Source of the DNA: Patescibacteria group bacterium
Lineage (GTDB): Bacteria; Patescibacteriota; Minisyncoccia; UBA6257; GWB1-50-10
Assembly (NCBI GenBank): GCA_040757555.1
Contig: JBFLWN010000005.1
Span: forward strand, 8,045-72,044
Length of the DNA stretch: 64,000 nucleotides
Direction: 5' to 3'
Shown here piece after piece: positions 11,008-58,445 of this stretch. A program made the position numbers and the translations under genes. How positions within the stretch are numbered: position 1 is the stretch's first letter; every line of letters starts with the position of its first letter. Under the pieces are notes generated by a model that saw nothing but the letters and a program-made list of their open reading frames with translations, did not search any database and had not been told where the DNA came from.

Positions 11008-12345
11008 TTAAGATGAAATGACTGACCTTACCTTATCAACAATTTCAGATTTGTCAACTTCCTGTTGTGTGCGATTCACTGTGTCTTTGAATTGAACAAC
11101 ATTTTTTTCAACTTCGGACATTCCCGCAATAATGGCATATTGCATTTCCAATTTTTCCGCGTATTTCAGTTGCCCACCCATTCCTTTTTCTTTTCCAAGA
11201 TAAAGTTCGGTCGGGATATTGTTCGCGCGAAGCAAAGAAGTGATTTCTTGCACATAGATGCGTGCTTTTGGATTATTTTCAAAGTTAAGCACCAATATTT
11301 TTGCGATACTCTTTTCTTTCTTTGTCATTCGAAGTTCTTTCAACGCGTCAAACAAACGATCTACTCCGATTGATGCACCTACCGCAGGGACAGATATTGT
11401 ACTAAATTTACTTACCAAATCATCATACCTTCCTCCGGAAAATACACTGCCAATAGACGGAAGTTTGGTGAGCATTGTTTCAAACACTGGACCGGTATAA
11501 TATCCGAGTCCGCGAGCAACTGAAAAATCGAATGCCCATTTTTCTTTTGGTACGCCGAGAGCAGTTAGATTTTCAGCAATTTCACGAAGCTCTTTTATTC
11601 CTTGGAGGGCATTTTCCGAATCTTTCACAAGATCAAATACTGCATCCAATGCCTCTTCATTGCCGCGTGGAATATCCAAGAATCTTTTAATTGCCCCAAC
11701 CGCATCAATTGAAATCCCCATTGTGGTAAGCTCTCCAGACACCGAATCCCATGATTGTTTGTCGAGTTTATCTATCACTCGCAATACATCGGTGTTTAGA
11801 TCATTTTCGAACCCAGCAAATTCAGGAAGTGCATTTAGAATTTTTCGATTATTAATCTTAATAATGAAGTCATCAACACCAAGTTTTGTCATAGTGCTGT
11901 AAATCACTGCGACAATCTCGGCATCTGCGGTCATATCTTTCGATCCAACGGTATCAATATCAAATTGATAAAATCCATTGAATCTTCCTTTTTGGGGGCG
12001 TTCTCCACGAAACACTCTTCCGAGTTGATAGCGTTTAAACAAGCCGCCAATTTCATTTCGATATTGGGCATATGCTCTTGCAAGTGCAACCGTAAGATCA
12101 AAACGAAGTGCGATGTCTGTTTCTTCTTTACTTCCACTTTTTTTTACTAAATAAATCTGTTTGGTGAAATTCGGATCGCCTCCAGTTAGAATTTCTAGAC
12201 GTTCTACTTCGGGTGTTTCAAGCGGTAAGAATCCAAACAATTCAAAAGATGCTCGAATTGTATCGAGAATTTTATTTCTCAAAATCATCTCATCTGGGAG
12301 ATAATCTTTAAATCCGCTAGGCAATTGTGGTTTTATCATTTGCAT
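11008..12345 (-). CDS. hisS: Histidyl-tRNA synthetase
   Basis: 445 aa; class II aaRS motifs (FRGERPQKGRFNGFYQFDIDTVG); C-terminal anticodon-binding domain. Confidence 0.9.
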   Translation of the reverse strand: MQMIKPQLPSGFKDYLPDEMILRNKILDTIRASFELFGFLPLETPEVERLEILTGGDPNFTKQIYLVKKSGSKEETDIALRFDLTVALARAYAQYRNEIGGLFKRYQLGRVFRGERPQKGRFNGFYQFDIDTVGSKDMTADAEIVAVIYSTMTKLGVDDFIIKINNRKILNALPEFAGFENDLNTDVLRVIDKLDKQSWDSVSGELTTMGISIDAVGAIKRFLDIPRGNEEALDAVFDLVKDSENALQGIKELREIAENLTALGVPKEKWAFDFSVARGLGYYTGPVFETMLTKLPSIGSVFSGGRYDDLVSKFSTISVPAVGASIGVDRLFDALKELRMTKKEKSIAKILVLNFENNPKARIYVQEITSLLRANNIPTELYLGKEKGMGGQLKYAEKLEMQYAIIAGMSEVEKNVVQFKDTVNRTQQEVDKSEIVDKVRSVISS

Positions 12346-42503: not shown

Positions 42504-42578
42504 TCCGGAGTAGCTCAGCGGTAGAGCAGGTGCCTGTTAAGCACTTGGTCGTAGGTTCGAATCCTACCTCCGGAGCCA
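42504..42578 (+). tRNA. tRNA-Asn (anticodon GTT), CCA encoded
   Basis: Acceptor TCCGGAG/CTCCGGA, D-arm GCTC-AGCGGTA-GAGC, anticodon loop CUGUUAA, T-arm GTAGG-TTCGAAT-CCTAC, GCCA 3' end. Confidence 0.85.
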
Positions 42579-44066
42579 AGTAGGACTACTAGCTAGTTCT
42601 AGTACTAAGTTGAAGGGAGAACGCAAGGTAAAATCTAGCGTTCTTTCATTTACGGTCGGGTTCTGAAGCAGATAATTCAAAAATACTCGTTTTTCTTCTG
42701 GTTCAGAACTTTCGAAAATTTGTTTGGCCCTGCGAGCGACAGAAAGTACCATAGATACAGTCGTTTGATAGTCGTAGTCGGCTTTTGTGTGTTCTTCTAG
42801 TTCAATGTTTAAGAGTTGAAGCCTGTCGTGGTATTCTTGATGTTTCTTGTCATAGATATTCTTAGTAATACTCTGTTGTGGATCTAGATAAACCTCAAGA
42901 AGTCGATTGTCCTTCTCTTTGGTTCGTTCATATTCATTGCGTATTCGAGCTATTTGAGCTTTATGAAAAACAATCTCGCTTTCTGTATCTTTTCTCAACT
43001 CTTCTACGAGATAATCTTGAGTTGCTTGTATAATACTCTCAAATCGGCCAAAAACCTCGTATACGGGCTTTAAGAGGTCTTTCTCGGGTATATAAAGCCT
43101 TTTACATATTCTTTTTGCATTTGTGCAGGAATAGTAATTTATTCCTTTATGAAACTCTCCAGACATAGAGCAACCACAGTTACTACATTTAAGTAAGCAA
43201 TTTCCAAATACATATTTTTTCTTCGTAAGTAATTTTGATCTGCGTTTGTTACGTTTTGCACGTACTTGTTGGCACATATCAAAGAGTTCCTTAGTAATTA
43301 ATCTAGGGTATTTGTGAGGGTACGGTCCATATTTTTTTGATATAGCTATTCCACAATAAAAGCTATCTTTTAAGATATGTTCAACTCCACTTTTTGATAG
43401 CTTGTTTTCTTTTAAGGTTCTTAAACCAAGTTCAGTTATTGTATTTCGAATAGTTTCAAGTGAATATTGTCCCGTTGCATATAATTCAAACATTTTTTTT
43501 ATTAAATATTCCCGTTCAGGATCAAGAATAATATCCTTACGCAATCTTTTTTCTGCATCAAGTTGAACATTTAAATAACCTAAACGTACTACTCCTGTCC
43601 ATTCTCCATTCCTACGCTTTTGTTCAAATGCCCGTTTTACATTATCGCTAATAGCGTCTGAATAATACTTAGAAAGACCAAGTTTCATTCCAAACGCAAA
43701 CTTATCCCCGGCAGACATTTTGTTGTTGATTACTTGTCCATCTGAAACAAAATGAAGTTCAATTTTATCATCAACAGCTCGCTCATAAAGTAACGCAACT
43801 CGCTTATCAAAGATATTTCGAGATAAACGATCTACCTTATCAAAACAAACCGCAATTTTTTCTTTAGAATTGTTTACACATTCAATGATTTTGTCGAATT
43901 CGTCTCTTTTGGTTTTATATGCACTTTCATCAAAACTGAACTCTTGAGTAACAATATAATCATTTCGTTCACAATAATCACGCATACGATTAAGCTGAGC
44001 GGGTAAGGAATTATTAGCCTCTCTTTGCTCTTCAGTTGACACTCTTGCTACGATTACTGCTTTCAT
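42564..44066 (-). CDS. Large serine recombinase (integrase)
   Basis: N-terminal resolvase catalytic domain AVIVARVSTEEQ (Ser nucleophile); recombinase domain; Cys-rich zinc ribbon (CSNCGC...C..C); C-terminal coiled coil. Confidence 0.85.
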   Translation of the reverse strand: MKAVIVARVSTEEQREANNSLPAQLNRMRDYCERNDYIVTQEFSFDESAYKTKRDEFDKIIECVNNSKEKIAVCFDKVDRLSRNIFDKRVALLYERAVDDKIELHFVSDGQVINNKMSAGDKFAFGMKLGLSKYYSDAISDNVKRAFEQKRRNGEWTGVVRLGYLNVQLDAEKRLRKDIILDPEREYLIKKMFELYATGQYSLETIRNTITELGLRTLKENKLSKSGVEHILKDSFYCGIAISKKYGPYPHKYPRLITKELFDMCQQVRAKRNKRRSKLLTKKKYVFGNCLLKCSNCGCSMSGEFHKGINYYSCTNAKRICKRLYIPEKDLLKPVYEVFGRFESIIQATQDYLVEELRKDTESEIVFHKAQIARIRNEYERTKEKDNRLLEVYLDPQQSITKNIYDKKHQEYHDRLQLLNIELEEHTKADYDYQTTVSMVLSVARRAKQIFESSEPEEKRVFLNYLLQNPTVNERTLDFTLRSPFNLVLELASSPTWLRR

Positions 44067-44072
44067 AGTTAA

Positions 44073-45038
44073 TTATAAATTTGGTGAATAAGAAATAGAT
44101 TTTATATAATCCTCCATAAATTGCCAATCAAGTTGACCATCGTTAGTAACTGGAAATTTTACCTTCAATGCAGAAAGTCTCTCCTTTGTCGCTCCTCTGC
44201 CATAGTTAAATTTCTTTGCAATTTCCAAATTTAATAGAGGGAGAATAAATTGTGAATTATATCTATTAAGATTCTTATTCCTAAATATATTTACTTTATT
44301 TCCTGTTATGAACGGTGTGGGCTGATAAAATGCCTTAAATCCTTCAGCTCCGATTGTTATGCACCCCCCTTTTTCGGTCGGTATTGATGTTTCATTTTTA
44401 ATGAACAATTCAACTCCATTGTTCTCTGTTGTTCTTGTGACATATGCTATCTTCCCAACTTCTTCGTTTTCAATCTCTTCTCTATGAATTGGCTTACCAA
44501 GTGAAGGCTCAAATATTTCGTCTAGTTTGAAATACTTCCATTTGTCTATATTTAATTTTTTATCTTTTATAGATAATGCTTTTTTTTCTAAAGAATTTAG
44601 TTTATCTAAATCGAGGTCGGTCCATTCATTGGGTATTCTTTCTGGAATTAAAATATCCTTCAATGTTTTGTTTGCCTGCCTACCATAATTATATCTATAT
44701 TTATTCTTACGAATGCAATAACAATAAAAAATCATCTCAATTTCAGATGGTTGTTTTTTGGGTATTAAAATATAAATATCTCTCCCACTATAATATTGCT
44801 CGTGTTGAAAAAAGGTGGCTAAAACAGAACCGCCACCCGCAACTGAAATGGTATGGGCTGGATTCGGCTGAATTTCATTTATTTTTTGTACATAGGCAGA
44901 CACCCCATTGTTTTTGTCGGTTCTAGAAACAAAGTTAACAGAATTCCTGTCTTGTTTCGAACATTCCTCCAAACTAATAAGTTCTAAGTTCACCCCATAC
45001 TTAACTTCAAATAGATCACTAACTTTTACCAACTTCAT
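44073..45038 (-). CDS. Restriction-modification specificity subunit (two target-recognition domains; HsdS/BcgIB-like)
   Basis: Two half-repeats beginning VKVSDLFEVKYG and FKLDEIFEPSLGK; 4-nt overlap with the MTase gene. Confidence 0.6.
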   Translation of the reverse strand: MKLVKVSDLFEVKYGVNLELISLEECSKQDRNSVNFVSRTDKNNGVSAYVQKINEIQPNPAHTISVAGGGSVLATFFQHEQYYSGRDIYILIPKKQPSEIEMIFYCYCIRKNKYRYNYGRQANKTLKDILIPERIPNEWTDLDLDKLNSLEKKALSIKDKKLNIDKWKYFKLDEIFEPSLGKPIHREEIENEEVGKIAYVTRTTENNGVELFIKNETSIPTEKGGCITIGAEGFKAFYQPTPFITGNKVNIFRNKNLNRYNSQFILPLLNLEIAKKFNYGRGATKERLSALKVKFPVTNDGQLDWQFMEDYIKSISYSPNL

Positions 45039-46843
45039 AAATATAGTTCTTTAAAATAAACAAAATCTTTGACCGACTTTACGAAATCTTCTTTAGATAA
45101 ACCCGAATAGTCTGTTTCCATATAAGCCTCAGCACACCACTCATCATCGGCAGAGACAACTTTAGTGACACTAAAACCGGGTCTCTCTTCTTTATTTAGA
45201 TATGAGGTTATCCAATCTTCTTTTATCTCTTTCTCAAATTTCTGATACAAATCAATCCTTCCTTTCATTTTTCGTTTTACAAAACCATCATTTTTATAGT
45301 AACCGAAGTAAACCTTTTTATTTTTAGGATGAGGTCTTTTGGCTGTAAAAACCATAATACAAGAAACGACTCCAACCTTTGAGTTAAAAAATAATTCGTC
45401 AGGCATAGAAAAAACTGCTTCCAGAGTGTGTTGTTCTAGTACCCTTTTTTTATATTCATAAACCTTACCAGTTTGAGCTAGTGCAGATTGCATAGGAATA
45501 ATAGCAACACATTTCCCGCCTTGTTCTAAAGAATCCAGATTGTTTAATATAAATTCATATTCATCTACATCATTTTTCTTGTCTGCTTTATAGGGTGGAT
45601 TCAGAAGCCCTACTGTGGGTTTAAATTTTTTGGCTTTTTTTATAATATCTTCATCAAAACAACTCCCATTCAGAATATTAGTTTTGCCATCTTGATGGAT
45701 AAACATATTTGAACAAGCAAGTGCAAATATATGTGCCTGATATTCGACACCAACTAACTGATTCTTCTTTATATTTTTTATTTTTTCTTGGTCTCCTTTT
45801 GCATCTTTTATCATTAAGTTCATAGCACTAACTAAAAATCCTCCGGTGCCAGCACAATTATCATATACCGTGCTATCCTTATTTACCTCGGCTAATTCCG
45901 ACATAAACTCTGTGATATGCGGAGGCGTAAGAACTATCCCCAAACCTTTGTCACTATTAGCATATCTCAGAAATTCAATATAAAGCTGTCCAAGAACATC
46001 AAAATATTCGTGAGTTTTTATAAAGTCTTTTATATTTTCATTTATATCGGAAATAATATCTCGCAAAACATTGTTTTTCTTTGATAGTGATGTGTCTGTT
46101 TTTATAAATTCAAAGCGACTAGTTAAAATTGCTAACTTAATTTCCCCAATGTTCGCATTTTGAAATTCATTTTTAACCGTGGTGACTAAATATTCAGCTA
46201 ATTGTTTTGGATCTGAATAATCTTTATAAGATTTGGAAAAGGCCTTGTTTTCGAGCGCAATCAAAATACAACTTATAAGTAATCCTCTATCACTTTCAAC
46301 TATTTTTTGTCCGTGTAATTTTTCATTTAATTCCTTAGAAAATATCAATAATTTTTCGTAATCTTGTCTAAATTTTTCAGGACTTTTAATATAACCATCC
46401 AGATAATCATCCGGGGATAAAAGTTTATTACTAAATATTTCAATTGCCTTCCTATCTCCTTTTAGTTGAAGAAAATGTGATATTTTTTTGTTTTTATTCG
46501 TTTCACCACTAACAGCAATAGATAGTACATCAAATTCTTTTGAAAGATATGAACTATACAAAAGAACACCATCTACCGAAAAGTCTTTGTAATTTTCTCT
46601 ACTAGAACTTTCGTGCTTAGTAACATCGGCCTTACATTCAACAACAATAACGAAATCTGGGTTTTTCTTATATTGGATAATAAATTCAGGGAACCCAGTA
46701 CCTAAGCCACCTTTGGAAGCTGTTGCTAATAATTTTTTTATTTTTGGATTATCAGATGATTGTTCTTCTAAAACTATGTTCTTAGGGAATTTTTCGAAAT
46801 GACTTCTGACTATCGACTCGGTTTTCCGTTCGTTTTTTGACAT
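45035..46843 (-). CDS. BcgI-like RM subunit: N-terminal PD-(D/E)xK nuclease domain fused to gamma-class N6-adenine DNA methyltransferase
   Basis: NPDFVIVVECKAD nuclease motif; MTase motif I DNCAGTGGF; motif IV NPPY. Confidence 0.75.
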   Translation of the reverse strand: MSKNERKTESIVRSHFEKFPKNIVLEEQSSDNPKIKKLLATASKGGLGTGFPEFIIQYKKNPDFVIVVECKADVTKHESSSRENYKDFSVDGVLLYSSYLSKEFDVLSIAVSGETNKNKKISHFLQLKGDRKAIEIFSNKLLSPDDYLDGYIKSPEKFRQDYEKLLIFSKELNEKLHGQKIVESDRGLLISCILIALENKAFSKSYKDYSDPKQLAEYLVTTVKNEFQNANIGEIKLAILTSRFEFIKTDTSLSKKNNVLRDIISDINENIKDFIKTHEYFDVLGQLYIEFLRYANSDKGLGIVLTPPHITEFMSELAEVNKDSTVYDNCAGTGGFLVSAMNLMIKDAKGDQEKIKNIKKNQLVGVEYQAHIFALACSNMFIHQDGKTNILNGSCFDEDIIKKAKKFKPTVGLLNPPYKADKKNDVDEYEFILNNLDSLEQGGKCVAIIPMQSALAQTGKVYEYKKRVLEQHTLEAVFSMPDELFFNSKVGVVSCIMVFTAKRPHPKNKKVYFGYYKNDGFVKRKMKGRIDLYQKFEKEIKEDWITSYLNKEERPGFSVTKVVSADDEWCAEAYMETDYSGLSKEDFVKSVKDFVYFKELYL

Positions 46844-46847
46844 AAAA

Positions 46848-47030
46848 TTATTTTGTTTTCGTTTTATTTAAAAACTCCTCAAATTCGACTTTGTCTATCC
46901 GAAACTCTTTACCGATTTTATACGCTTTAAGTTTCTTTGCTTTGATGTATCGATAAATCGTCATAATATTTACCTCTAATTTTTCAGCCAAATTTTTTGC
47001 AGTATAAAATTGTTTTTCTCTATCTCCCAT
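46848..47030 (-). CDS. Excisionase/AlpA-family HTH DNA-binding protein
   Basis: 60 aa; NIMTIYRYIKAKKLKAYKIGKEFRI. Confidence 0.55.
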   Translation of the reverse strand: MGDREKQFYTAKNLAEKLEVNIMTIYRYIKAKKLKAYKIGKEFRIDKVEFEEFLNKTKTK

Positions 47031-47032
47031 AA

Positions 47033-47302
47033 TTAAGCTATTTTTTTAAAACTTGTTTCTTTTTTAATCCAAATATCAACCACATTTTTATTATCCGGAT
47101 TCTCTTTTTCATTGAGTTCTATGGTTTTAGTTAAGTATCCTTCTTTTTCAAGATCTTCTATATATTCTTTAAATCTAGGATTAGTCCTATTAAAATGCCC
47201 ATTGTATTTATATCCCATTGCCAGTAATTCACTGTGGTCATATTCTGGGTTAGGACCAGTACCACCTCCAGCAAATGCATCCTTGTATTTATTTATATCC
47301 AT
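47033..47302 (-). CDS. Hypothetical protein (island)
   Basis: 89-aa ORF. Confidence 0.35.
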   Translation of the reverse strand: MDINKYKDAFAGGGTGPNPEYDHSELLAMGYKYNGHFNRTNPRFKEYIEDLEKEGYLTKTIELNEKENPDNKNVVDIWIKKETSFKKIA

Positions 47303-47333
47303 AAAATAATTATACTTTACATTGCTTTACACA

Positions 47334-48440
47334 CTAAGTGGATAACTTTTTATATTTATATGGCTCAAATTCAGCAAGTGCTTCATCTATTTGGATCACC
47401 CAGTTTCTGATTTTATTATTGGTAATTATTTTATTTGCTGTTTGCACATCTCTCATAAATCTATACCAAGTGCGACAATTGGATTTTTTTGAAAGAATGG
47501 ATCGTAACATTCTAAATCCCCCGTCATCCTTAGCGAGTGTGGTTAATCCAATTAAATAAATCGCTTGTTTTGGTCTTATTTTTTTATTACCCACAAAAAG
47601 TATTCGCAAAGCATCCTTCATACTAAATGGCAATGCAAATAGTCCGAGACTTCTTTCTTTTATTAATCTATTCCAATAATAGATCATTACTTTCTGGCTA
47701 AGATCGGAATTAAATATATCTTTGAAGATTAGATTTTTTTGGTAACCTAGTTGTTCAAAGAGCTTATTCATCTTTTGTTTACTTCCTAATCGTATCTCAA
47801 AACGAATTATTTCAACTGATCCTTCTTTGAGATCTTCAAAAAGACTCCGCTGATATTTTGGTTGCTCTTTATCTATCGCTCGCTTATCTTCTTTTTTGAG
47901 ATCCGCGATTTTGTCATAGATAACAAGTTGATGAGAAGTAGTATGAGCATATAAACTCTCTCCACCGTTGATGTATCGAGTTTGTGCTAAATCAAAACAT
48001 TTTGTGATATTAACTTTATTTATTTCAGAAATTACATAACTTACTGTAAATCCATCCCTTAGTTGTATATTTTTAGAAAAATGAACCGAACTTACCGATG
48101 CATTCTCTAACACCTCCTTATCTGCTATAACTCCCATTGCGTTTAATCTTTCTTGCAACATATTGATCACTGATGGAAAATCACTCTGTTGGACCTCATC
48201 CAAATTATTAAGAAAAAGTAATTTCGGGATTGAAAACTCTATTCTTATATTCTTTTCCTTGCCCAACCCATTGCGTTTATAGCCCGTAAGACGGGGTAGA
48301 TAAGACCATTTCTCCAAATCATTTTTTGATGGATTTCTCACGAACTTTTGATATTGAGCAGTTTTTGAATTAAGATCCCAGGCCCCGACAGAAAACCTTA
48401 ACTTGTCCATTGGGATAAGCAGATTTATTGTATCAATCAT
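47334..48440 (-). CDS. Hypothetical protein, possible replication/mobilisation initiator of the element
   Basis: 368 aa; position between xis-like gene and an origin-like intergenic region; no firm motif. Confidence 0.3.
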   Translation of the reverse strand: MIDTINLLIPMDKLRFSVGAWDLNSKTAQYQKFVRNPSKNDLEKWSYLPRLTGYKRNGLGKEKNIRIEFSIPKLLFLNNLDEVQQSDFPSVINMLQERLNAMGVIADKEVLENASVSSVHFSKNIQLRDGFTVSYVISEINKVNITKCFDLAQTRYINGGESLYAHTTSHQLVIYDKIADLKKEDKRAIDKEQPKYQRSLFEDLKEGSVEIIRFEIRLGSKQKMNKLFEQLGYQKNLIFKDIFNSDLSQKVMIYYWNRLIKERSLGLFALPFSMKDALRILFVGNKKIRPKQAIYLIGLTTLAKDDGGFRMLRSILSKKSNCRTWYRFMRDVQTANKIITNNKIRNWVIQIDEALAEFEPYKYKKLST

Positions 48441-48657
48441 TGTTTTGTAATTGTTTTTTTACGTAAAGCGACGGGTTTATTCGCTTGTCGACTTTTATAA
48501 GTAATGCGAAAAAACCAACAAGATTATGTCTCTCTTCTGACGATAATTCATCTAACTTTCCACATTTTTTCTTATCAACTTCCTGCATAAATAATAATCC
48601 AGTGTTTATGCAACTAGGCTATTATTTACTTGAAATCTTATACAAGAATTTTGTGTA

Positions 48658-49485
48658 CTACACTTCTTTTCTTCTTTTTTTCTGAATGGAAATAATTTTT
48701 CCTATCATCCCCTCATCCACCGAAAGCTCGTCTGGAAAACGTTCAATGACTAGACTCATAATTTTTTTGTGTGGAAGTTGACGGCTATCATAGATAAATA
48801 GATCTCTTTGGACTATAGATTTCTTTTTTGTTTTTATTTTTCCAATTTTAACTTCGGTAATCTTATACCCATTTTGTAGTGGTTTGACCTCTGTTTTATA
48901 TGTTTTTTCGATAAAATCTAAAATATCTCTCTTGCTCATATACGGACTTATCTTAATTGCGATTGGATATGCCTTATTGTCATATTCCTCAAAACATTCG
49001 TAATCTTCTCCAAGGTCTTTTTTGTCTCGCAACAAATCTCTTACAACTGCAAGATTATAAGAATTAAAATCCACTGGCTCTACGAACTCGTCGTAAAAAA
49101 GATAATTAAGAAAAACTTCATACCATTCGAGATAATGTAGATAATATTTATCAAGAAGGGTCTTAATTTCCACACTCAAAACACCCCACTTTTTCTTGTT
49201 TCTTATATATTTCCATTTTCCTGGCATTATAAATCTGGATGACGGATTATATTCATCTCTTTTTTCTACTGGAGAAAATCCAGAATCGGGAATTTCAAGT
49301 TCTTTCCTAAGTTTTTTTATTTTTTCGTTCACAAAATCACTCTGTAAAATCACCTCTACATAATTCTTAAGTTTTTTATAAGACTGCGTCTTAATATTTG
49401 CACTCGTACGTTTTTTTGCGTTTTCTTCAAGAAACTGAAACATCGGAACAAATTCCCCGTTTTCATTCAGATTTGCCATATACAA
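48658..49485 (-). CDS. Hypothetical protein (island)
   Basis: 275-aa ORF; basic. Confidence 0.35.
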   Translation of the reverse strand: MYMANLNENGEFVPMFQFLEENAKKRTSANIKTQSYKKLKNYVEVILQSDFVNEKIKKLRKELEIPDSGFSPVEKRDEYNPSSRFIMPGKWKYIRNKKKWGVLSVEIKTLLDKYYLHYLEWYEVFLNYLFYDEFVEPVDFNSYNLAVVRDLLRDKKDLGEDYECFEEYDNKAYPIAIKISPYMSKRDILDFIEKTYKTEVKPLQNGYKITEVKIGKIKTKKKSIVQRDLFIYDSRQLPHKKIMSLVIERFPDELSVDEGMIGKIISIQKKRRKEV

Positions 49486-49589
49486 TAATTAAAACCTATT
49501 TAAAAACATTTCATAGTCTTCACGTAATTCTCAAAAAACGATAAAAGTGCTAACGTATAATCAACAACCAAATAAGAGACCTAACCCCA

Positions 49590-49815
49590 AGAAATTCCAA
49601 CATTTTCCGATATTTCCTGGGTAGGGTTTAAAACAAGCGCGACGAGCATAAAGATCCCATCATCAGGGTCGCTCGTCGCGTCATACAGGGAAACTTGTAT
49701 GTAGGTCGCAAGGCCTTACCTGGTGGTGGGTTTTTTGATTTTCTACCCCCCAGGTTTTCCTATATTTACCGAAGTCTTGTCCCCGATAGTTCCTTATATT
49801 TTCCGATATTTGTTT
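49590..49815. promoter_or_regulatory. Structured, GC-richer intergenic region with 10-bp perfect GC inverted repeat and three copies of TTTTCC(G/T)ATATTT (origin/oriT/att-like)
   Basis: CGCGACGAGC...GCTCGTCGCG hairpin at 49637..49680; iteron-like repeats at 49604, 49755, 49799; CCTGGGTAGG / CTACCCCCCAGG inverted motifs. Confidence 0.4.
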
Positions 49816-49859
49816 TTTAGAAATTTTATTAAAAGGTCAAAAAATAATGATAAATTCTT

Positions 49860-50048
49860 ATGAATTTAGATAAAAAGATTAAATTCAGTGATGTTTTGTG
49901 GTCAATTATTCCGGCAAGTATTTTGATTTCTGCGTTAAATGTGTTTTTGGGCGTAAGGGGTACATTAATTCCGATATTATCAGTTGCCTTTTTCACATAT
50001 CTAATAAGTAGGGTTAGGATTTGGAGAAACACACACAAATCTAAATAA
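49860..50048 (+). CDS. Small 2-TM protein
   Basis: 62-aa ORF. Confidence 0.3.
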   Translation: MNLDKKIKFSDVLWSIIPASILISALNVFLGVRGTLIPILSVAFFTYLISRVRIWRNTHKSK

Positions 50049-50143
50049 AATGGCCATAATTATTTGTAATACCATAAAAATTTGGATGTTTTATACCCCC
50101 ATTCTTCCTAGTTTTTCCTAGTTTTAAAAATCTTTAATTACAT

Positions 50144-50446
50144 ATGGATAACAATAAAAACACCATAGTTATTATATTCTTGACATATTGGATTGGAGCG
50201 ACCGCCACGTTGTTATTGCCAATAAAAAATTCCCCAAGGAATATATTTTTAGTCGCGATTATAGGAATTATTTGGTCATTTACTATTTTTATTTCCCTTT
50301 TTGACAAAAATAATTCTGGCAATTTATATCGATACACGAGAAATAGACCTAATATTCGGTTTAAAAATAAAAAGAAGGTTATACAAAAATCACTCGTTAG
50401 GTCATTACAAGAAGAAAAAGATCTAAATAATAAAGAGGATTTTTAG
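50144..50446 (+). CDS. Small membrane protein
   Basis: 100 aa; 2 TM plus basic tail. Confidence 0.35.
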   Translation: MDNNKNTIVIIFLTYWIGATATLLLPIKNSPRNIFLVAIIGIIWSFTIFISLFDKNNSGNLYRYTRNRPNIRFKNKKKVIQKSLVRSLQEEKDLNNKEDF

Positions 50447-50489
50447 CTCTTTACTTCAACTTGCACAATGGTATTGTTTCATACATAAA

Positions 50490-51263
50490 ATGGAAGTCCC
50501 AAATAATATAAGACACATTTTCGAGAAAATCGAAAAAAGCGAGGATGAATGGAAAGCTCTTTATATGGCTGTTTGGTATTATTCTTATTACATCAAAGAT
50601 GAATATATAGACAGTGGAAAAAATGACCCAGCAGAGAAATTATCTAGACTTATAAATGGCTCTGGAACAGCCTCCACTATTAAAGTGTTTGATTTTAAAA
50701 CAGGAACAGGGACTGCTAGTAGTGCCGTCATAGTGTTTCCAGATGAAAGTCCGGGTGAAGAGATAATTAATCTTGAATTACCAGCATCAAAAAAGGGGCA
50801 CTCTTACAAATGGAAGCCAAAAGAACTTTATTCTATTCTCACATCCCGGGATGGACAATTTACTCTCGGCCATCTACAAACACTCTTCTCATTATTTGAA
50901 GAGTTGTTATGTGAAACATCTAAGACGCTTTTTGATTTAGAAATAAATACCGGAAAATGGAAGGGAATAGAAACTTTCTTTAGCCAAAATAGTTTTAAAG
51001 ATATTCTTTTACCAGAAGAACTCGGGGAATTAAAATTAGCAAAAGAAACAAGAAATTGTTTTATTCATAACAACTCAAAAATAGATGATAAGTGGTTGTC
51101 TGCATATCAAGGCGTCAGAGAAACCAAAACATTACTCCCTGACTTAATAGGAGCAGATTTAGATAGTGGGCTACAAAATACATTCCACGAAATAGAAAAT
51201 TGGCACGATTTAATTGTCGATATCTCTAAAAGAATTGTGGAAAAAATCTCACGTATGAATTAA
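50490..51263 (+). CDS. Hypothetical protein with HEPN-like R-N-x3-H motif (Abi-like candidate)
   Basis: ELKLAKETRNCFIHNNSKIDD near the C-terminus. Confidence 0.4.
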   Translation: MEVPNNIRHIFEKIEKSEDEWKALYMAVWYYSYYIKDEYIDSGKNDPAEKLSRLINGSGTASTIKVFDFKTGTGTASSAVIVFPDESPGEEIINLELPASKKGHSYKWKPKELYSILTSRDGQFTLGHLQTLFSLFEELLCETSKTLFDLEINTGKWKGIETFFSQNSFKDILLPEELGELKLAKETRNCFIHNNSKIDDKWLSAYQGVRETKTLLPDLIGADLDSGLQNTFHEIENWHDLIVDISKRIVEKISRMN

Positions 51264-51265
51264 CT

Positions 51266-51766
51266 ATGATACCTATAAAAACGAAAATACGAAGGTTCTG
51301 TCTACTCTGCAAACATCATAAACTTTTTTCGTTTCTCTCTACTCGGTACAAATTAAAATTGAACTCTCTTCACGGGAAAAAACATTGGTCCCGCGTTGGG
51401 AAAATCGGAACTTATTTGTCTTATTATACCGGTGCTGATTGTGAGGTGGTGTTTTTATTCGCCTATTTACACGACATAGAGCGGAACAACGAAAATTATG
51501 ATCCAGAACACGGACAAAGATCGGCTGTATTTATAGAAAAATTATATAACGAAAAAAAGATTAAAATCTCACAAAACCAATTAGAGCTACTCACATTTGC
51601 CTGTCAACACCATAACAACTCTGATATGAAAAGTGATAATGTCACCATTCAAACTTGTTGGGATGCAGATAGACTAGATTTATGGCGCGCTGGCATCATT
51701 CCCGATCCATCTCTACTGAACACCGAGTTTAGCAAAACAGAAAACGCAATCAATTATCTAAGATAA
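51266..51766 (+). CDS. HD-domain phosphohydrolase
   Basis: H...HD...H...D pattern: LHGKKHW, YLHDIER, CQHH, DADRLDL. Confidence 0.5.
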   Translation: MIPIKTKIRRFCLLCKHHKLFSFLSTRYKLKLNSLHGKKHWSRVGKIGTYLSYYTGADCEVVFLFAYLHDIERNNENYDPEHGQRSAVFIEKLYNEKKIKISQNQLELLTFACQHHNNSDMKSDNVTIQTCWDADRLDLWRAGIIPDPSLLNTEFSKTENAINYLR

Positions 51767-51814
51767 GATCCCTATTTACCACAGTTTATAAAGTGATATT
51801 GTTCAATATATAAA

Positions 51815-52006
51815 ATGGATGTATTCGAAATAACACTAAACATAATCTGGAAGCCCATATATTTCGTATGGAGATTAATACGTTGGTTTTCTCTCCTTAT
51901 TTGGAAGTTTTTGAAGGATATAATGAACAGTCTTTATGGAAAAATAATAGCAATCTTAGCTACCGCCATTTTGACATATCTAATATCCCAACTATTGAAC
52001 AAATAG
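51815..52006 (+). CDS. Small membrane protein
   Basis: 63-aa ORF. Confidence 0.3.
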   Translation: MDVFEITLNIIWKPIYFVWRLIRWFSLLIWKFLKDIMNSLYGKIIAILATAILTYLISQLLNK

Positions 52007-52033
52007 ATCTACTAGCCTATCATCAGGATAAAA

Positions 52034-52291
52034 TTGTATAATAGAACTATGACTGATAAAGAAATAATTTTTAATACTCCAAAAAACCTCGATGAGTTTA
52101 CAGATCAATTTGTGATTTTCTTCTCAGAAGATGCAGAACCAAAAGTTTTGTTCAATTCTTTTATTGCGGAAGAGACCTACAAAAAAGCTGAAGAAATAAA
52201 AATAGAACAAAACAGGGAGCCTGTGGTAATTAGAGTTCAGAAAAGTAATATATCTAACAGCATCACACAAATGTTGTCGATGAGGTTTTAG
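52034..52291 (+). CDS. Hypothetical protein
   Basis: 85-aa ORF. Confidence 0.3.
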   Translation: MYNRTMTDKEIIFNTPKNLDEFTDQFVIFFSEDAEPKVLFNSFIAEETYKKAEEIKIEQNREPVVIRVQKSNISNSITQMLSMRF

Positions 52292-52295
52292 TTGT

Positions 52296-52967
52296 ATGTT
52301 CTGTAAGGTCCCATATACAGCAATAGGAGGAAGACACCGACCTTATCTCGAGGTTGTTTTTTCTAATAAACTGAAAAATAAAAACAGTAACAAAACATTT
52401 GCGATGGTTGATTCTGGTGCAGATCATACCGTTATCCCATTTTCAATAGGGGCATTTATAGGACTAACTGAGCCAACTCAAGAAGAAAAATTAGCAAACG
52501 TAAGTGGTGTTGGTGGTAATTTAAGTTACATAGAAAGAAAATGTAGAATTTATGTCGCTAATAGGATGAGAAACAAGACCTATGGGTTTGATGAAACTGT
52601 TTGGTGGATATATCCAGATGCCGACACACAAAAACAACAAGAATCTCTAGCAAAAACGCTTCAGGAACTACAAGTCCTTCAAGCTCAAAGTTATCCAGGT
52701 AGTGATCTTTTTAATCACTTCGAAAATCAAAAAAAGCAGACAATTGATAATTTTATAGCAATTGCCAATAAATTAGAAACTGGGGTTCTTTTAGGTCGTC
52801 CATTCTTCGATAATTTTGATTTTATCCAGTTCTTCCATAAGGATCGAAGTAGAGAAGACAGGTGTTTTTTTAATTATAAGGTCGCTAACAACAAAGCGGT
52901 TGAGGTATTACCAATTCAACAAACCGACTTTATAAACCAGATTCAAGCTACTAAGCAAGAAGGTTAG
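52296..52967 (+). CDS. Retropepsin-like (clan AA) aspartic protease domain protein
   Basis: AMVDSGADHTVIP (D-S-G-A active site) and LLGRPFF flap/C-terminal motif. Confidence 0.5.
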   Translation: MFCKVPYTAIGGRHRPYLEVVFSNKLKNKNSNKTFAMVDSGADHTVIPFSIGAFIGLTEPTQEEKLANVSGVGGNLSYIERKCRIYVANRMRNKTYGFDETVWWIYPDADTQKQQESLAKTLQELQVLQAQSYPGSDLFNHFENQKKQTIDNFIAIANKLETGVLLGRPFFDNFDFIQFFHKDRSREDRCFFNYKVANNKAVEVLPIQQTDFINQIQATKQEG

Positions 52968-53144
52968 TGTGGAAGGATTTTTTGGGATTTACAAAATCAA
53001 AGATTCCACTAAACTCAAGTTCCTGTTTTATTAACCCCCAATTAAGAGTTCTGAACTTGTTTACCATTGGGAGCAGAGTTGACAAATCTACTTTTATGCC
53101 TTATAATATGGGCAGTATTTTAATTCATAAAAAGGAGTATCAAA

Positions 53145-53585
53145 ATGATTGGTCAATACACCTTAAAACTCTCTGACGTTGTAGCATCCGAGAATTTATT
53201 CTCAGACAAGGAAAAAATTAATAACATTATCCGAGTCCTTACATTTGATTCAATTGAGGGCTTCCTATTCTGTCTCAAATTTAATTTCTTGCCAGGATGG
53301 ACACTTCCAGAAGATATCCAACAGCATCATGTCTTCTACAAAGTGAAAAGAGAAAACGGAGAACTCACTCCCCTCAGATGGGCTGACTCCATACAAGGAG
53401 AAACAGAAAAGATATTTGTCCTCGCCTTGAAAGATAGTACCTTCAGAATAATTCTTCGAGAGAATTATCAAATTCATTTCTCCGAAGTACATTCCGGAAA
53501 TCCAAAAATGATTTTAGGTGTCAGAGAAATTCCGGGTGGCTATGATATAGCTACTGATATCGGAAAATATAGTATACAGAATTAA
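53145..53585 (+). CDS. Hypothetical protein
   Basis: 146-aa ORF followed by a strong terminator. Confidence 0.4.
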   Translation: MIGQYTLKLSDVVASENLFSDKEKINNIIRVLTFDSIEGFLFCLKFNFLPGWTLPEDIQQHHVFYKVKRENGELTPLRWADSIQGETEKIFVLALKDSTFRIILRENYQIHFSEVHSGNPKMILGVREIPGGYDIATDIGKYSIQN

Positions 53586-53588
53586 AAA

Positions 53589-53616
53589 GAAACCCCGATC
53601 TATTTCGGGGTTTTTT
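53589..53616 (+). terminator. Rho-independent terminator (cassette boundary module)
   Basis: GAAACCCCGATCTATTTCGGGGTTTTTT. Confidence 0.75.
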
Positions 53617-53636
53617 CTTTATTCCACTTTAATCCT

Positions 53637-53706
53637 GGTTCTAATATCGTCTAGCACTGTGAGCAAACGTATTGACAAACGTAAATAACCGTGCTATAAT
53701 TAGCAC
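53637..53706 (+). promoter_or_regulatory. Cassette promoter-operator module copy 1
   Basis: GGTTCTAATATCGTCTAGCACTGTGAGCAAACGTA-TTGACA-17nt-TATAAT; palindrome GTGCTATAATTAGCAC overlaps the -10. Confidence 0.6.
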
Positions 53707-53736
53707 AGAAAATAAAAAACATCAAAGGAGTTTAGT

Positions 53737-54006
53737 ATGGGAACTACGGTATTGGATATTCTAAAAGCTGAACAAACAGCATTGGATATTGCAGCACAAA
53801 AAATTGACCTAACATACGAACAAGTATGTGGGAATTTAAAATTTTATTGTGGCTGGAATCCAAAAACAGAAGAAGGAATAAAAGAACAAATAACTTCTGG
53901 ACTACCGCAACTAAAAGACGTAAAGGTTAAAGTGTGGGGATTTTTTCACGTAAAAATAACTTTTACTATGCCAGACGGAACTCGTAGGAAATATGAGTAC
54001 AAATGA
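53737..54006 (+). CDS. Hypothetical small protein (cassette 1)
   Basis: AAAGGAG RBS; 89 aa. Confidence 0.45.
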   Translation: MGTTVLDILKAEQTALDIAAQKIDLTYEQVCGNLKFYCGWNPKTEEGIKEQITSGLPQLKDVKVKVWGFFHVKITFTMPDGTRRKYEYK

Positions 54007-54094
54007 ATTTTTAACTTAAGCCACCGAAATATATAGTAGGTGGCTTTTTTTCAAAACTCTACATCAATTCAAATTCATTTCGCATTCCTCACCT

Positions 54095-54163
54095 ATTCTC
54101 GTTCTAATATCGTCTAACACTGTGAGCAAACGTATTGACAATAGCACATCTCTGTGCTATTGT
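54095..54163 (+). promoter_or_regulatory. Cassette promoter-operator module copy 2
   Basis: TCTCGTTCTAATATCGTCTAACACTGTGAGCAAACGTA-TTGACA; palindrome ATAGCACATCTCTGTGCTAT in the spacer; TATTGT -10 candidate. Confidence 0.6.
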
Positions 54164-54190
54164 TTTTATAGTTCTATCACACAAATAAAT

Positions 54191-54427
54191 ATGGAAGAAA
54201 AGGCATTTTTAGTCGGAACGCACAGAGCAATGTTTCACGCTGGAGAACCAGCTGAAATTACTGAAGTTGTTTTTTCAACTCCAGAAGGACTTAAACCTCG
54301 TGCCTGTTATCGAGTTCGTTTTGAAAATGGAGATGAAGACCTTATACCGATTTCTGAATCTCATCATTTCGAAATAATATCGGAAAGTGATGTAAAATCA
54401 GAAAAAATACCTGAAGTTATTCATTGA
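54191..54427 (+). CDS. Hypothetical small protein (cassette 2)
   Basis: Start MEEKAFLVG downstream of the promoter module; the ORF-track start 54122 lies inside the promoter. Confidence 0.45.
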   Translation: MEEKAFLVGTHRAMFHAGEPAEITEVVFSTPEGLKPRACYRVRFENGDEDLIPISESHHFEIISESDVKSEKIPEVIH

Positions 54428-54439
54428 TCAATATTAGAA

Positions 54440-54466
54440 AGAAACCCCGAAATTCTCGGGGTTTTT
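54440..54466 (+). terminator. Rho-independent terminator (cassette boundary module)
   Basis: GAAACCCCGAAATTCTCGGGGTTTTT followed by GCTATTTTATATCCCCCAC. Confidence 0.75.
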
Positions 54467-54486
54467 GCTATTTTATATCCCCCACC

Positions 54487-54552
54487 CTCGTTCTAATATC
54501 ATCTAAAACTCTGAGCTAAAATTAAAAAAGATGATTTTGCGTCATCTTTTTT
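54487..54552 (+). promoter_or_regulatory. Degenerate module copy (no -35) plus hairpin terminator
   Basis: CTCGTTCTAATATCATCTAAAACTCTGAGCTAAAATT then AAGATGATTTTGCGTCATCTTTTTT. Confidence 0.45.
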
Positions 54553-54674
54553 AATTTCTGTTTTTTGACGGTAGGATTCGAACGGGAAAGGGGTCGGGAA
54601 AACGGAAGTTTTCCCGTGGTGGAAGTATTGAAACCGCAAGGTGTCAGAGAGCGAATAAAATGGGCGACGTGAGA

Positions 54675-54689
54675 TTCCTACCTCCGGAG
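54675..54689 (+). repeat. 15-bp exact direct repeat of tRNA-Asn 3' end (TCCTACCTCCGGAGC); candidate attR core
   Basis: Identical to 42562..42576; extended 17/18 match. Confidence 0.65.
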
Positions 54690-54694
54690 CATCC

Positions 54695-54723
54695 ATTGAC
54701 AATAGCATAGAAATATGCTATTT
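54695..54723 (+). promoter_or_regulatory. Cassette promoter-operator module copy 3
   Basis: TTGACA-ATAGCATAGAAATATGCTAT(palindrome)-TATTTT at 17-bp spacing; immediately follows the tRNA-fragment repeat. Confidence 0.55.
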
Positions 54724-54760
54724 TGTTTGTAGAAATTATTAACAAATTATAGGTGAAAGA

Positions 54761-55189
54761 ATGAAGGGAAAATTGCCGATCACAGAAAAAATTATCCTCG
54801 AAAGCAATGAGGATCAGTGGCGATTAAAAGTAAAAAAACTCATCACTGATTTCAAGACGTCTGGGATCATTGAAAAAGAACCTGGCACAAAAGTGCGAGT
54901 GCAACTTACAATAAACGAAATCATTCCTCCGGAAAGGGTCCGCTGGGAAAAAATACTGTCTCTCAAAACAGACAACCATGAGGAATATACGGAAAGTCTA
55001 AGAAAATCGCTTTTGTTTCTCTATGATTCGATGCTCAAGACAATCTGGACCTTTTATGGATACATAGAAGGAGAACAAAGAATCCCTATAATCATTATTT
55101 ACGTCGAATCCACGAATGTTGGTATATATACGCAAAAACTGAAAAGTGAATCGACAGAACATTTTTTCCCACCACATCTCTTGAATTAA
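54761..55189 (+). CDS. Hypothetical protein (cassette 3a)
   Basis: RBS AGGTGAAAG; 142 aa. Confidence 0.45.
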   Translation: MKGKLPITEKIILESNEDQWRLKVKKLITDFKTSGIIEKEPGTKVRVQLTINEIIPPERVRWEKILSLKTDNHEEYTESLRKSLLFLYDSMLKTIWTFYGYIEGEQRIPIIIIYVESTNVGIYTQKLKSESTEHFFPPHLLN

Positions 55190-55201
55190 AAGGAGGTAAC
55201 C

Positions 55202-55570
55202 ATGCCACTCGTACTTGTGCAGTATAAACAATTAGCATTCCTGGAAGAGGTTGTAGAAAAACTTTCAAAAGCGCTTCCAAAGATTGTAGCACCGAACCTT
55301 AATCTTTCTGAATATGAACGACTCGCGGGAGGTGTACTTCCAGAAGATATTATTGTTCGATGCACCAAGGGAGGGAAAATGGATACAAATGAAAAAGATA
55401 TTGGAATCATTATCTTTGCCCACGACTTCCCCGAGCGAAAAGAAAATCTCGAAGAACGCAAAGACGCTATCATAAAAGGCATTCATGAGTTTCTGGCTAC
55501 CAATTATGAACGCAACGTCTCTGGCTTCGTATGGATACTACTCGCACCGTCTGCATTTGGACAGTTATAA
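55202..55570 (+). CDS. Hypothetical protein (cassette 3b)
   Basis: AAAGGAGG RBS 12 nt after the previous stop; 122 aa. Confidence 0.45.
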   Translation: MPLVLVQYKQLAFLEEVVEKLSKALPKIVAPNLNLSEYERLAGGVLPEDIIVRCTKGGKMDTNEKDIGIIIFAHDFPERKENLEERKDAIIKGIHEFLATNYERNVSGFVWILLAPSAFGQL

Positions 55571-55576
55571 TTAATA

Positions 55577-55605
55577 TAAAACCCCGATCTATTTCGGGGT
55601 TTTTT
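55577..55605 (+). terminator. Rho-independent terminator (cassette boundary module)
   Basis: AAAACCCCGATCTATTTCGGGGTTTTTT followed by GCTATTTTATATCCCCCAC. Confidence 0.75.
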
Positions 55606-55623
55606 GCTATTTTATATCCCCCA

Positions 55624-55693
55624 CTCTCGTTCTAATATCGTCCAAAACGTTGAATAAATATATTGACTAACACCACCCGTAAGTGGTATTTTG
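55624..55693 (+). promoter_or_regulatory. Cassette promoter-operator module copy 4
   Basis: CTCGTTCTAATATCGTCCAAAACG...TTGACT-17nt-TATTTT with CCAC..GTGG inverted repeat in the spacer. Confidence 0.5.
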
Positions 55694-55730
55694 TTTTTAG
55701 TTGTTTATCAATATCATTTTGGAGGTTTCT

Positions 55731-56297
55731 ATGAGAATTACAGAACAAGTAAGAGAATTACTCGAAGAACTCATGGATAATAAATGGCACCTTCAACCGC
55801 CTCGTGGGGTTGGAAGGAAAACAGTAGATTTCTGGATTGAACGCAATTGGATCAAAACAAAAACCGTTCCAATCGCCAGCAAAAATAAAGTCCAATCCTT
55901 TTTTATGCCACTTCAAATTACAAAGAAGGGGCGAATTGTCTATCTGAATCAGAAATATCAAAACAAGAAACGTTTACCGAAAGAACTCATTGAATACCGA
56001 TTAAAACAACTTCGACAAGTGGTAGGCGTTCAGGTTGTCCGATCTCTTCAAACACGGAAATCATTTCTTTTTGAGTGGCGCCGTTCAACCCCCCACAACT
56101 GGTGGGTAGAGAACAGGAGGGGCAAAATGCTGTGGCATTCTTCTGACGATCGCAGTATACGACAAATCCCCGATTCGATGTTATTCGAAATAGTAAAACA
56201 CTCAAAAAATCTTATCATTACCGGTTCGTGGCTTGCAGGAAGAGATGAAGGAAGGCCCGAAGAAACAATATATCGACTTAAAAAGATTTATTCTTAA
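55731..56297 (+). CDS. Hypothetical basic protein (cassette 4)
   Basis: GGAGG RBS then ATG (MRITEQ); 188 aa; Trp/Arg-rich. Confidence 0.45.
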   Translation: MRITEQVRELLEELMDNKWHLQPPRGVGRKTVDFWIERNWIKTKTVPIASKNKVQSFFMPLQITKKGRIVYLNQKYQNKKRLPKELIEYRLKQLRQVVGVQVVRSLQTRKSFLFEWRRSTPHNWWVENRRGKMLWHSSDDRSIRQIPDSMLFEIVKHSKNLIITGSWLAGRDEGRPEETIYRLKKIYS

Positions 56298-56302
56298 AAA
56301 CA

Positions 56303-56328
56303 AAACCCCGATAACCATCGGGGTTTTT
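56303..56328. terminator. Terminator (partial boundary module)
   Basis: AAAACCCCGATAACCATCGGGGTTTTTGCTATA. Confidence 0.7.
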
Positions 56329-56350
56329 GCTATACTCTAAAACAAAATAT

Positions 56351-58366: not shown

Positions 58367-58424
58367 AATATTATTCTCACTAATTCGGGCAGTGGTAAAA
58401 GTATACCATAACTTAAAAACCCCG

Positions 58425-58445
58425 AATTAAATCGGGGTTTTTATT
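58425..58445 (-). terminator. Rho-independent terminator
   Basis: AAAACCCCGAATTAAATCGGGGTTTTT. Confidence 0.7.

Follow-up and report, generated by a model that had tools for sequence, protein, structure and literature searches.

Mixed cargo on a small serine-recombinase island of a Patescibacteria genome: a u85-retropepsin gene pair beside a HEPN-like protein, an HD hydrolase and a LOOT RNA

The genomes of candidate phyla radiation (CPR) bacteria and DPANN archaea are tiny, and beyond restriction-modification (RM) and CRISPR most of the known defence systems are seldom found in them. Here we examine a run of eight same-strand open reading frames (ORFs) at positions 49860-53585 of a 64,000-nucleotide stretch of contig JBFLWN010000005.1 (the whole of which we call the window), taken from a Patescibacteria metagenome-assembled genome (MAG). 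A first-pass annotation had read this run as a single novel defence or cargo module, made up of three small transmembrane (TM) proteins, a 257-aa HEPN-like protein, an HD-domain hydrolase, an 85-aa protein (here u85), a retropepsin-like aspartic protease and a 146-aa protein (u146). All eight ORFs are present in the ORF list where that annotation had placed them. We conclude instead that the flagged run is not one defence system: its parts are unrelated, and together they make up the varied cargo of a small mobile island.

Several described systems come close to parts of this locus. As a whole it resembles the tRNA-targeting serine-recombinase islands that carry defence or toxin-antitoxin cargo, with which it shares a recombinase gene adjoining a tRNA gene, a second copy of the tRNA 3' end, genes for an HTH_17 protein and an RM module, a lower GC content and variable cargo; it is unlike them in its Patescibacteria host, in two backbone proteins (u368 and u275) that match nothing known, and in having the LOOT small RNA (sRNA) aboard. 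The 257-aa protein compares best with the HEPN RNases (HepT of the HEPN-MNT systems, and the Cthe_2314-like, Apea-like and RiboL-PSP groups), being alike in its Rx4-6H motif, helical body and small size, and both groups are often found in mobile or variable regions. Unlike HEPN-MNT, its family has no adjacent MNT or other constant partner, and unlike the known HEPN families it has a distinct N-terminal region, extra invariant residues and no significant structural match. The HD protein shares with the YedJ/YpgQ-type HD proteins (PDB 3gw7, 5dqv, 2pq7 and 3djb) the H...HD...H...D pattern and a profile match of ~120 residues, but is ~50-60 residues shorter at the C-terminus, has its own motif (T-C-W-D-A-D-R-L-D-L-W-R), and turns up often on viral contigs.

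Retropepsin-like enzymes that serve the physiology of bacteria have been described, namely RimB and RloA (PMC11957051) and APRc (PMC4140852), while the small retropepsin proteins that adjoin Sulfolobales type III CRISPR loci (the Saci_1895 type) are a precedent for an association with defence (PMC3973734). The window protease is like all of these in its single-domain clan AA fold, which would have to dimerise to form the active site. RimB works with RimK, whereas no ATP-grasp partner accompanies the window protease; RloA is secreted and APRc membrane-anchored (PMC11957051, PMC4140852), and hydropathy analysis of the window protease shows no hydrophobic segment. None of these proteins has been described with a partner of the DUF5678 type, a comparison to which we return below.

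An integrative island at tRNA-Asn

We consider it likely that the run is the cargo arm of an integrative island of ~12.1 kb, and that this arm is mosaic in make-up, its modules assorting independently of one another. In order to see which genes travel together, every island protein was compared with ~50 related loci (cited here by number, as L023) by tblastn and all-vs-all clustering; the 257-aa family was represented by 13 distinct contexts and the protease family by 19. Of these loci, only the window combines the 257-aa gene with the protease, which is found in none of the 13 contexts, just as the 257-aa gene is found in none of the 19. The HD gene accompanies the 257-aa gene in one context, at a distance of 5.5 kb (L010/L011, two near-identical contigs), and accompanies the protease only in L025, where it lies directly upstream of u85 and the protease. 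The sole regular neighbour that the comparison reveals is u85 itself, which is directly upstream of the protease gene in 19/19 loci, so that the pairing is obligate and the 85-aa protein is not the unrelated unknown for which it had been taken.

In L023 the backbone of the same island is followed, after ~80 bp, directly by u85 and the protease, without the block that runs from the first (62-aa) to the third (63-aa) TM ORF, and that block is therefore dispensable. The first-pass annotation had itself named a lack of co-conservation elsewhere as grounds for giving up the single module and, because the genes are not co-conserved elsewhere, the single module is largely refuted on its own terms: u85 and the protease hold together as a unit, while the whole set does not.

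We nevertheless weighed the possibility of a single anti-phage system with all eight genes as its components, with the HEPN RNase and HD proteins as effectors, the retropepsin as maturase or effector, and the TM proteins as sensors or pores. The genes lie on the same strand with two junctions of only 2 and 4 nt, there is no strong terminator between 49860 and 53585, and the island that carries them is mobile and bears RM genes; the HD placements in L025 and L010/L011 also point this way. Furthermore, the protease weakly matches the PADLOC entries PDC-M52B and PDC-M08B at E ~1e-3 (0.001 and 0.0021 in PADLOC-DB 2.0). The other PADLOC-DB matches are weak as well (PycTM 0.0044, Cas3 HD 0.018), and no score was meaningful, in agreement with the earlier view that no described defence system is recognisable here. 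Set against the one-system explanation are the lack of any other locus joining the 257-aa gene to the protease, the L023 arrangement in which the backbone abuts the u85-protease pair, TM ORFs that have no homologs and are unannotated, a u146 gene with its own promoter and terminator, and an HD family that occurs alone on 49 viral contigs. On this balance we hold it to be very unlikely.

The physical evidence for the island, which the first-pass annotation had not seen, starts from a tRNA-Asn (GTT) gene at 42504..42578 (+), identified by ARAGORN and scoring 73.1 bits against the Rfam tRNA model. Its 3' end, GAATCCTACCTCCGGAGC at 42559..42576 (+), forms the proximal attachment (att) repeat and recurs with 17 of 18 nt identical at 54673-54690 (+), where the island ends. 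These repeats are 12.1 kb apart, there is no further copy within the window, and in a search with the 16-nt core 0/100 shuffles reached the observed number of matches. The tRNA gene is overlapped by the 3' end of a gene for a 500-aa large serine recombinase (42564..44066, -) with the Pfam domains Resolvase (1e-19), Recombinase (9e-15) and Zn_ribbon_recom (1.5e-5), so that the three recombinase domains, an adjoining target and flanking att repeats of a large-serine-recombinase element are all found. This recombinase would have put the island (about 42559-54690) into the 3' end of tRNA-Asn. The GC content is 0.30-0.35 across 44-54 kb, compared with 0.35-0.41 over most of the remaining window.

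Some observations weigh against this reconstruction. For a serine recombinase, att repeats of 16-18 nt are on the long side, and although the layout of a tRNA gene overlapped by a recombinase is seen again in L027 and L014, we looked for att repeats in both and found none. The right border could be more complex than we have drawn it, because similar promoter and terminator cassettes continue past the distal att repeat. Finally, experiments and solved structures bear on none of these island proteins.

An integrase beside a tRNA gene, an HD family with a PHROG match and with members on viral contigs, and the presence of small membrane ORFs would also fit a prophage or phage satellite with ordinary phage genes, in which the TM proteins would be holins and the protease would serve capsid maturation. 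The island is, however, only ~12 kb long, and the protease family lies between housekeeping genes elsewhere. No capsid, terminase, portal or tail protein was found among ten cargo and backbone proteins compared with PHROGs, nor by Pfam among 20 proteins in or beside the island. None of 2.9 million viral contigs carries a member of the 257-aa or protease families, nor, in a search that reaches close relatives only, of the u368 or u275 families. A match to ordinary phage functions, which the first-pass annotation had allowed for, is thus not what we see: the Pfam and PHROG scans gave no structural match, and of the families searched only HD is found on viral contigs. We therefore rejected a prophage, for lack of structural genes among the proteins scanned and of viral relatives of the 257-aa, protease, u368 and u275 proteins, and regard it as the least credible of the explanations considered.

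The backbone of the island lies on the minus strand. Next to the recombinase are the genes for a type I RM S subunit (44073-45038; Pfam Methylase_S, 2.6e-22) and M subunit, an N6 DNA methylase (45035-46843; N6_Mtase, 1.1e-32). No type I R subunit was recognisable among the scanned island proteins, and M and S, with no recognisable R nearby, may act as an orphan methyltransferase that shields the element. A small DNA-binding protein of the HTH_17 (excisionase/MerR) type follows (46848..47030; Pfam HTH_17, 4.2e-12) and is a candidate directionality factor or regulator. Beyond it are u89 (47033-47302), u368 (47334-48440), u51 (48433-48588) and u275 (48658-49485), to none of which a function is assigned. 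The last three recur together in L023, at 45%, 56% and 38% identity respectively, and u275 also has a homolog in L038; Pfam, PHROG, PADLOC, NCBIfam, PDB, phage and plasmid scans with the backbone proteins gave no match. Two ideas about u368 were discarded: that it is a gpII-type rolling-circle initiator, an N-terminal resemblance which no tool backed, and that stop codons are recoded in L023, where the u368 homolog is intact and just runs off the end of the contig.

The u85-retropepsin pair

The one unit that the cargo arm does hold consists of u85 (52034..52291, +), a DUF5678-like small protein, and the 223-aa protease (52296..52967, +), separated by a junction of 4 nt (TAG-TTGT-ATG). GenBank starts u85 at the ATG at 52049, giving 80 aa. 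The GenBank protease, AB1333_03040, is 187 aa long and starts 36 codons downstream of the 223-aa start. We consider the longer form likelier, because the family conserves the first 36 residues (Y7, R15-P16-Y17-L18-E19).

The earlier claim of a retropepsin fold is well borne out. Across 30 sequences D39, G41, A42 and D43 do not vary, at least 90% have S40, and L165, G167, R168, F170 and F171 are invariant as well, so that both the DSGAD and the LLGRPFF motifs are fixed. The AlphaFold2 (AF2) model, with a mean predicted local distance difference test (pLDDT) score of 90.8, has a ~50-aa two-helix insertion at residues ~109-160, and its top five PDB matches by Foldseek are the proteases of Rous sarcoma virus (RSV), human immunodeficiency virus 2 (HIV-2), human T-lymphotropic virus 1 (HTLV-1) and equine infectious anaemia virus (EIAV), at a probability of 1.00 and a TM-target of 0.51-0.57. 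The score against Pfam RVP is 18.4 bits, under the cutoff of 20.7. Taken with the predicted fold, the D-S/T-G-A catalytic motif and the hydrophobic-hydrophobic-Gly motif place the protein in clan AA. The family is small, with 39 clusters.

A wider relationship of the pair is suggested by the true DUF5678 proteins (PF18929), whose genes in L041-L044 and L050 immediately precede those of short Asp_protease_2 proteins; they overlap the protease gene in four of these loci, by 4 nt in the distant pairs of L041, L042 and L044, and in L045 (8092-8712) the two are fused. Such pairs and fusions occur in both bacteria and archaea, and in each arrangement of separate genes the small gene comes first and the protease second, abutting or overlapping. 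The window pair is like these in its gene order, in the DSGAD...LLGR core of its protease and in the profile-profile match of u85; it is unlike them in that u85 has diverged from the DUF5678 hidden Markov model (HMM), and in that its protease has 223 rather than ~140 aa, with a longer C-terminus and a helical hairpin. When u85 was aligned with true DUF5678 by hhalign, the probability was 72.9% and 82.9% (the latter with E 9.2e-6 over 50 columns), compared with at most 0.6% for reversed and unrelated controls. The u85-protease pair seems to be a diverged offshoot of a wider pairing of DUF5678 proteins with retropepsins. Full-text searches found no paper that characterises DUF5678 or the DUF5678-protease pair.

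The neighbours of the pair vary. In L027 they are an NgoPII RM system and a UvrA-like ATPase, and in L028 (4048-8213) a gene resembling OLD-family endonucleases and a UvrD-type helicase gene lie directly upstream of the pair, with a LOOT RNA divergent from them. The best PDB matches of the L028 helicase are Gabija GajB, and the two upstream genes have the look of a Gabija-like system on a metagenome contig from CPR bacteria. Elsewhere the pair, in the manner of toxin-antitoxin pairs, stands by itself between housekeeping genes, namely cell-wall genes in L012, and the genes for single-stranded DNA-binding protein (SSB) and ribosomal protein L11 in L013.

Two small linked genes of patchy distribution, carried on islands, have the architecture of a type II toxin-antitoxin system, and from this architecture and distribution, which fit a toxin-antitoxin-like protease/regulator module, we infer that the u85-protease unit is such a pair. 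In this mechanism u85 would bind and control the dimeric protease, in the way of an antitoxin or inhibitor; upon loss of u85 or of the element, the freed protease would cleave proteins of the host or of an invader, and the pair would thereby stabilise the island or abort an infection. Two results sit less comfortably with this picture. The fusion in L045 is unusual for a classical toxin-antitoxin, and would fit the role of a prodomain, adaptor or substrate; and the DUF5678 HMM gave no direct match to any of ten u85-family members, the window copy included.

The HEPN-like and HD proteins

The 257-aa protein (50490..51263, +) probably belongs to the HEPN superfamily, as a new family within it. 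The first-pass annotation had pointed to an R-N-x3-H motif near the C-terminus, and the motif stands: it reads T-R-N-C-F-I-H, with R188 and H193 invariant and N189 kept in at least 90% of 41 homologs, while among 52 more diverse members H193 never changes and R188 is present in at least 90%. This is the HEPN Rx4-6H motif with a polar residue after the arginine. Other conserved features of the family are an N-terminal S-E-x-x-W-K-A-x-Y-M and the invariant residues H128, D121, E137 and W238. The family has no Pfam domain. Sub-threshold matches of single members recur in two scans to HEPN_Cthe2314, HEPN_Apea, HepT-like, RiboL-PSP-HEPN and DUF4145, the best E values being 3.8e-4 (HepT-like) and 1.8e-3 (RiboL-PSP-HEPN); the one further recurring family, DUF2555, was matched by two members in the first scan only. 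The AF2 model has a pLDDT of 86 and is helical outside a lineage-specific insertion of ~45 aa. On these features the protein is predicted to be a stand-alone, metal-independent RNase.

The assignment to HEPN has to be set against several results. All matches to HEPN-clan Pfam families are below threshold, no member of the 257-aa family reaching the gathering score of any of them; Foldseek with the model gave no significant match, to HEPN structures or others; and an exhaustive profile search with the family reached no annotated HEPN family. The call thus rests on the motif together with sub-threshold matches. Profile searches of the PDB with the family also found nothing, and we accordingly dropped the idea that intermediate sequences might connect the 257-aa family with an annotated HEPN family, since neither the exhaustive profile search nor the PDB searches reached one. 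A HEPN-MNT toxin-antitoxin was likewise rejected, as no MNT nucleotidyltransferase lies beside the 257-aa gene in the window or in the 13 related contexts.

The family comprises 86 clusters in an indexed search and 100 representatives among 1.84 billion proteins, and is limited to CPR bacteria and DPANN-type archaea. Its presence in the latter follows from sequence records of Pacearchaeota and Woesearchaeota and from an archaeal RNase P RNA (11856-12199) on the L002 contig that carries a homolog; the archaeal loci are L016, L017, L020 and L002. Since the family crosses the boundary between bacteria and archaea, horizontal transfer between CPR bacteria and DPANN archaea is implied. Its surroundings differ from locus to locus. 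Serine recombinases are nearby in L014 and L019, the latter with a Panacea antitoxin nearby as well, and L001 has a neighbourhood of UvrD/PD-(D/E)XK, NucS-like and DUF2726 genes. In L010/L011 (779-5429) a 1,529-aa AAA_11/AAA_12 helicase with a Top1-type zinc ribbon is encoded between the HD and 257-aa homologs, and because of this helicase the neighbourhood looks variable or defence-type. A constant ~200-aa partner upstream of the 257-aa gene was considered and abandoned, the upstream proteins of L001, L010, L014 and L019 sharing no family, as was a common chromosomal hotspot (the RRF/M50/MreB region) for the 257-aa gene and the protease pair, since the pair in L026 is not in that slot.

The HD gene (51266..51766, +) abuts the 257-aa gene with a gap of 2 nt (TAA-CT-ATG), not the 4 nt first given for this junction. 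This gap suggests that HD is co-translated with the 257-aa gene in this island; the two genes are probably co-transcribed here and are not partners elsewhere, and any cooperation between the HEPN-like and HD proteins would be conjecture. The assignment of the 166-aa product as an HD-domain hydrolase was sound. The metal-ligand residues H40, H69-D70, H82, H116, D133 and D135 are invariant, and the family profile matches PDB entries of YedJ-type structures (2pq7, 1.5e-8; 3djb, 2.2e-6; YedJ, 1.6e-5), although the window copy alone scores 18 bits against Pfam HD, under the cutoff of 22; several homologs carry PF01966. The protein also matches phrog_3921 at 1.5e-7. With at least 238 clusters, the family is present on 49 IMG/VR viral contigs (L051-L099), some of them longer than 200 kb, on which no other window protein was found. 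By its profile matches and conserved residues, the HD protein is a generic, shortened relative of the YedJ/YpgQ nucleotide phosphohydrolases.

There is one setting that must temper a conflict-based interpretation of the 257-aa family. In one lineage (L006-L009 and L015) the gene has a fixed place in a series consisting of an M50 protease, a Trypsin_2 (HtrA-like) protease, the 257-aa gene, an aminoacyl-tRNA synthetase and MreBC/PBP2, which suggests a domesticated or physiological role there, and the slot after Trypsin_2 is kept in two diverged genomes; this housekeeping slot fits a physiological role as well as a role in conflict. It invites the broader explanation that all these genes belong to ordinary CPR/DPANN physiology and are on the island by chance, with the HEPN-like protein acting in RNA processing or turnover, the HD protein in nucleotide house-cleaning, and the pair as a RimB-like processing protease. 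In favour of it are the position of the 257-aa gene beside Trypsin_2 and upstream of the synthetase and MreBC, the pairs between cell-wall genes and between SSB and L11, and the housekeeping type of the YedJ/YpgQ relatives, YpgQ being a housekeeping-type enzyme. Retropepsin-like enzymes with physiological roles also exist in bacteria, as RimB and RloA (PMC11957051) and APRc (PMC4140852) show. The 257-aa and protease families are, however, patchy and small, as the counts of 100 representatives and 39 clusters indicate; serine recombinases, RM genes, a Gabija-like gene pair and a Panacea antitoxin are found nearby, and the 257-aa family is shared by bacteria and archaea. We are doubtful of this explanation and prefer to see the run as island cargo of independent origins.

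The LOOT RNA and the remaining ORFs

A LOOT sRNA (Rfam RF03000; 49578-49717, +), which the first-pass annotation had missed, separates the island backbone from the cargo arm and immediately precedes the first ORF; it scores 66.8 bits against a gathering score of 46.4 over model positions 1-121. A TATAAT, read from the sequence, is upstream of it at 49556-49561, and a hairpin with a T-run at 49715-49738 is terminator-like. Besides the window, LOOT was found only in L027 (8968-9082, +; 80.8 bits) and L028 (3693-3826, -; 72.5 bits), with none in the other 39 loci scanned, and all three loci carry the u85-protease pair. The helices are kept among the three copies, with compensatory changes at 18 of the 37 pairs predicted. 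Its context here may tie LOOT for the first time to the serine-recombinase islands of CPR bacteria; the literature on LOOT yielded essentially nothing. Three direct repeats of ~31 nt (CCCC...TTTTCCGATATTT), between 49585 and 49811, flank and overlap LOOT and could be protein-binding sites.

The 257-aa, HD, u85 and retropepsin proteins of the originally proposed domain run have homologs, and its three small membrane proteins have none in any fetched locus. These hypothetical TM ORFs, all on the plus strand, encode 62 aa (49860-50048; maximum hydropathy 2.08), 100 aa (50144-50446; 2.63) and 63 aa (51815..52006; hydrophobic). The GenBank record does not list them, and its locus tags AB1333_03015 to _03050 run consecutively, with no gap into which they would fit. 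The 3' coding DNA of the 62-aa and 63-aa ORFs is 71% identical (49959-50006 and 51938-51985).

The last gene of the run, u146 (53145-53585, +; 146 aa), is annotated in GenBank and forms a singleton cluster, without relatives in the fetched loci. It lies in a cassette of its own (53079..53616), with a perfect TTGACA-17-TATAAT promoter of the sigma-70 type at 53079-53107 and a strong terminator at 53587-53616, neither of which had been noted before; because of this promoter and terminator we treat it as a separate orphan cassette. Two further cassettes of promoter, gene and terminator follow on the same strand from 53672, with u89b at 53737-54006 and u101 at 54122-54427. Near-identical control sequences, comprising the terminator AAACCCCGA-N6-TCGGGGTTT and a conserved promoter block, recur in this series over 53580-56330 (and at 58417-58440), which thus extends beyond the distal att repeat. 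The copy at 54458-54732 has its promoter block split by ~180 bp that hold the tRNA fragment. The cassettes past the att repeat could be a decayed older island in tandem.

From this set of results we conclude that a single multi-gene defence system, as it was first framed, does not hold. The cargo arm instead combines one genuine two-gene unit, itself little studied, with a LOOT sRNA, an HD enzyme of a generic kind and a member of what is probably a new family of HEPN proteins. We can also offer, as speculation that we ourselves rate as improbable, a more general reading, in which DUF5678-type proteins and retropepsins would form widespread, undescribed proteolytic toxin-antitoxin or abortive-infection modules on CPR/DPANN islands and beyond, the CPR branch travelling with LOOT as a regulatory or mobility part, while the neighbouring HEPN-family protein would be a second, independent suicide RNase.

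Cargo of a conflict type on the mobile elements of CPR bacteria and DPANN archaea is informative, given the tiny genomes of these organisms and the few known defence systems detected in them besides RM and CRISPR. The 257-aa proteins make up a compact HEPN-like family that is limited to episymbiont lineages and shared across the boundary between bacteria and archaea. The u85-retropepsin pair would provide a simple two-gene model for the control of a retrovirus-type protease in prokaryotes, with links to the uncharacterised DUF5678, and the presence of the orphan LOOT RNA beside this pair on serine-recombinase islands may be a first contextual clue to the function of that RNA.

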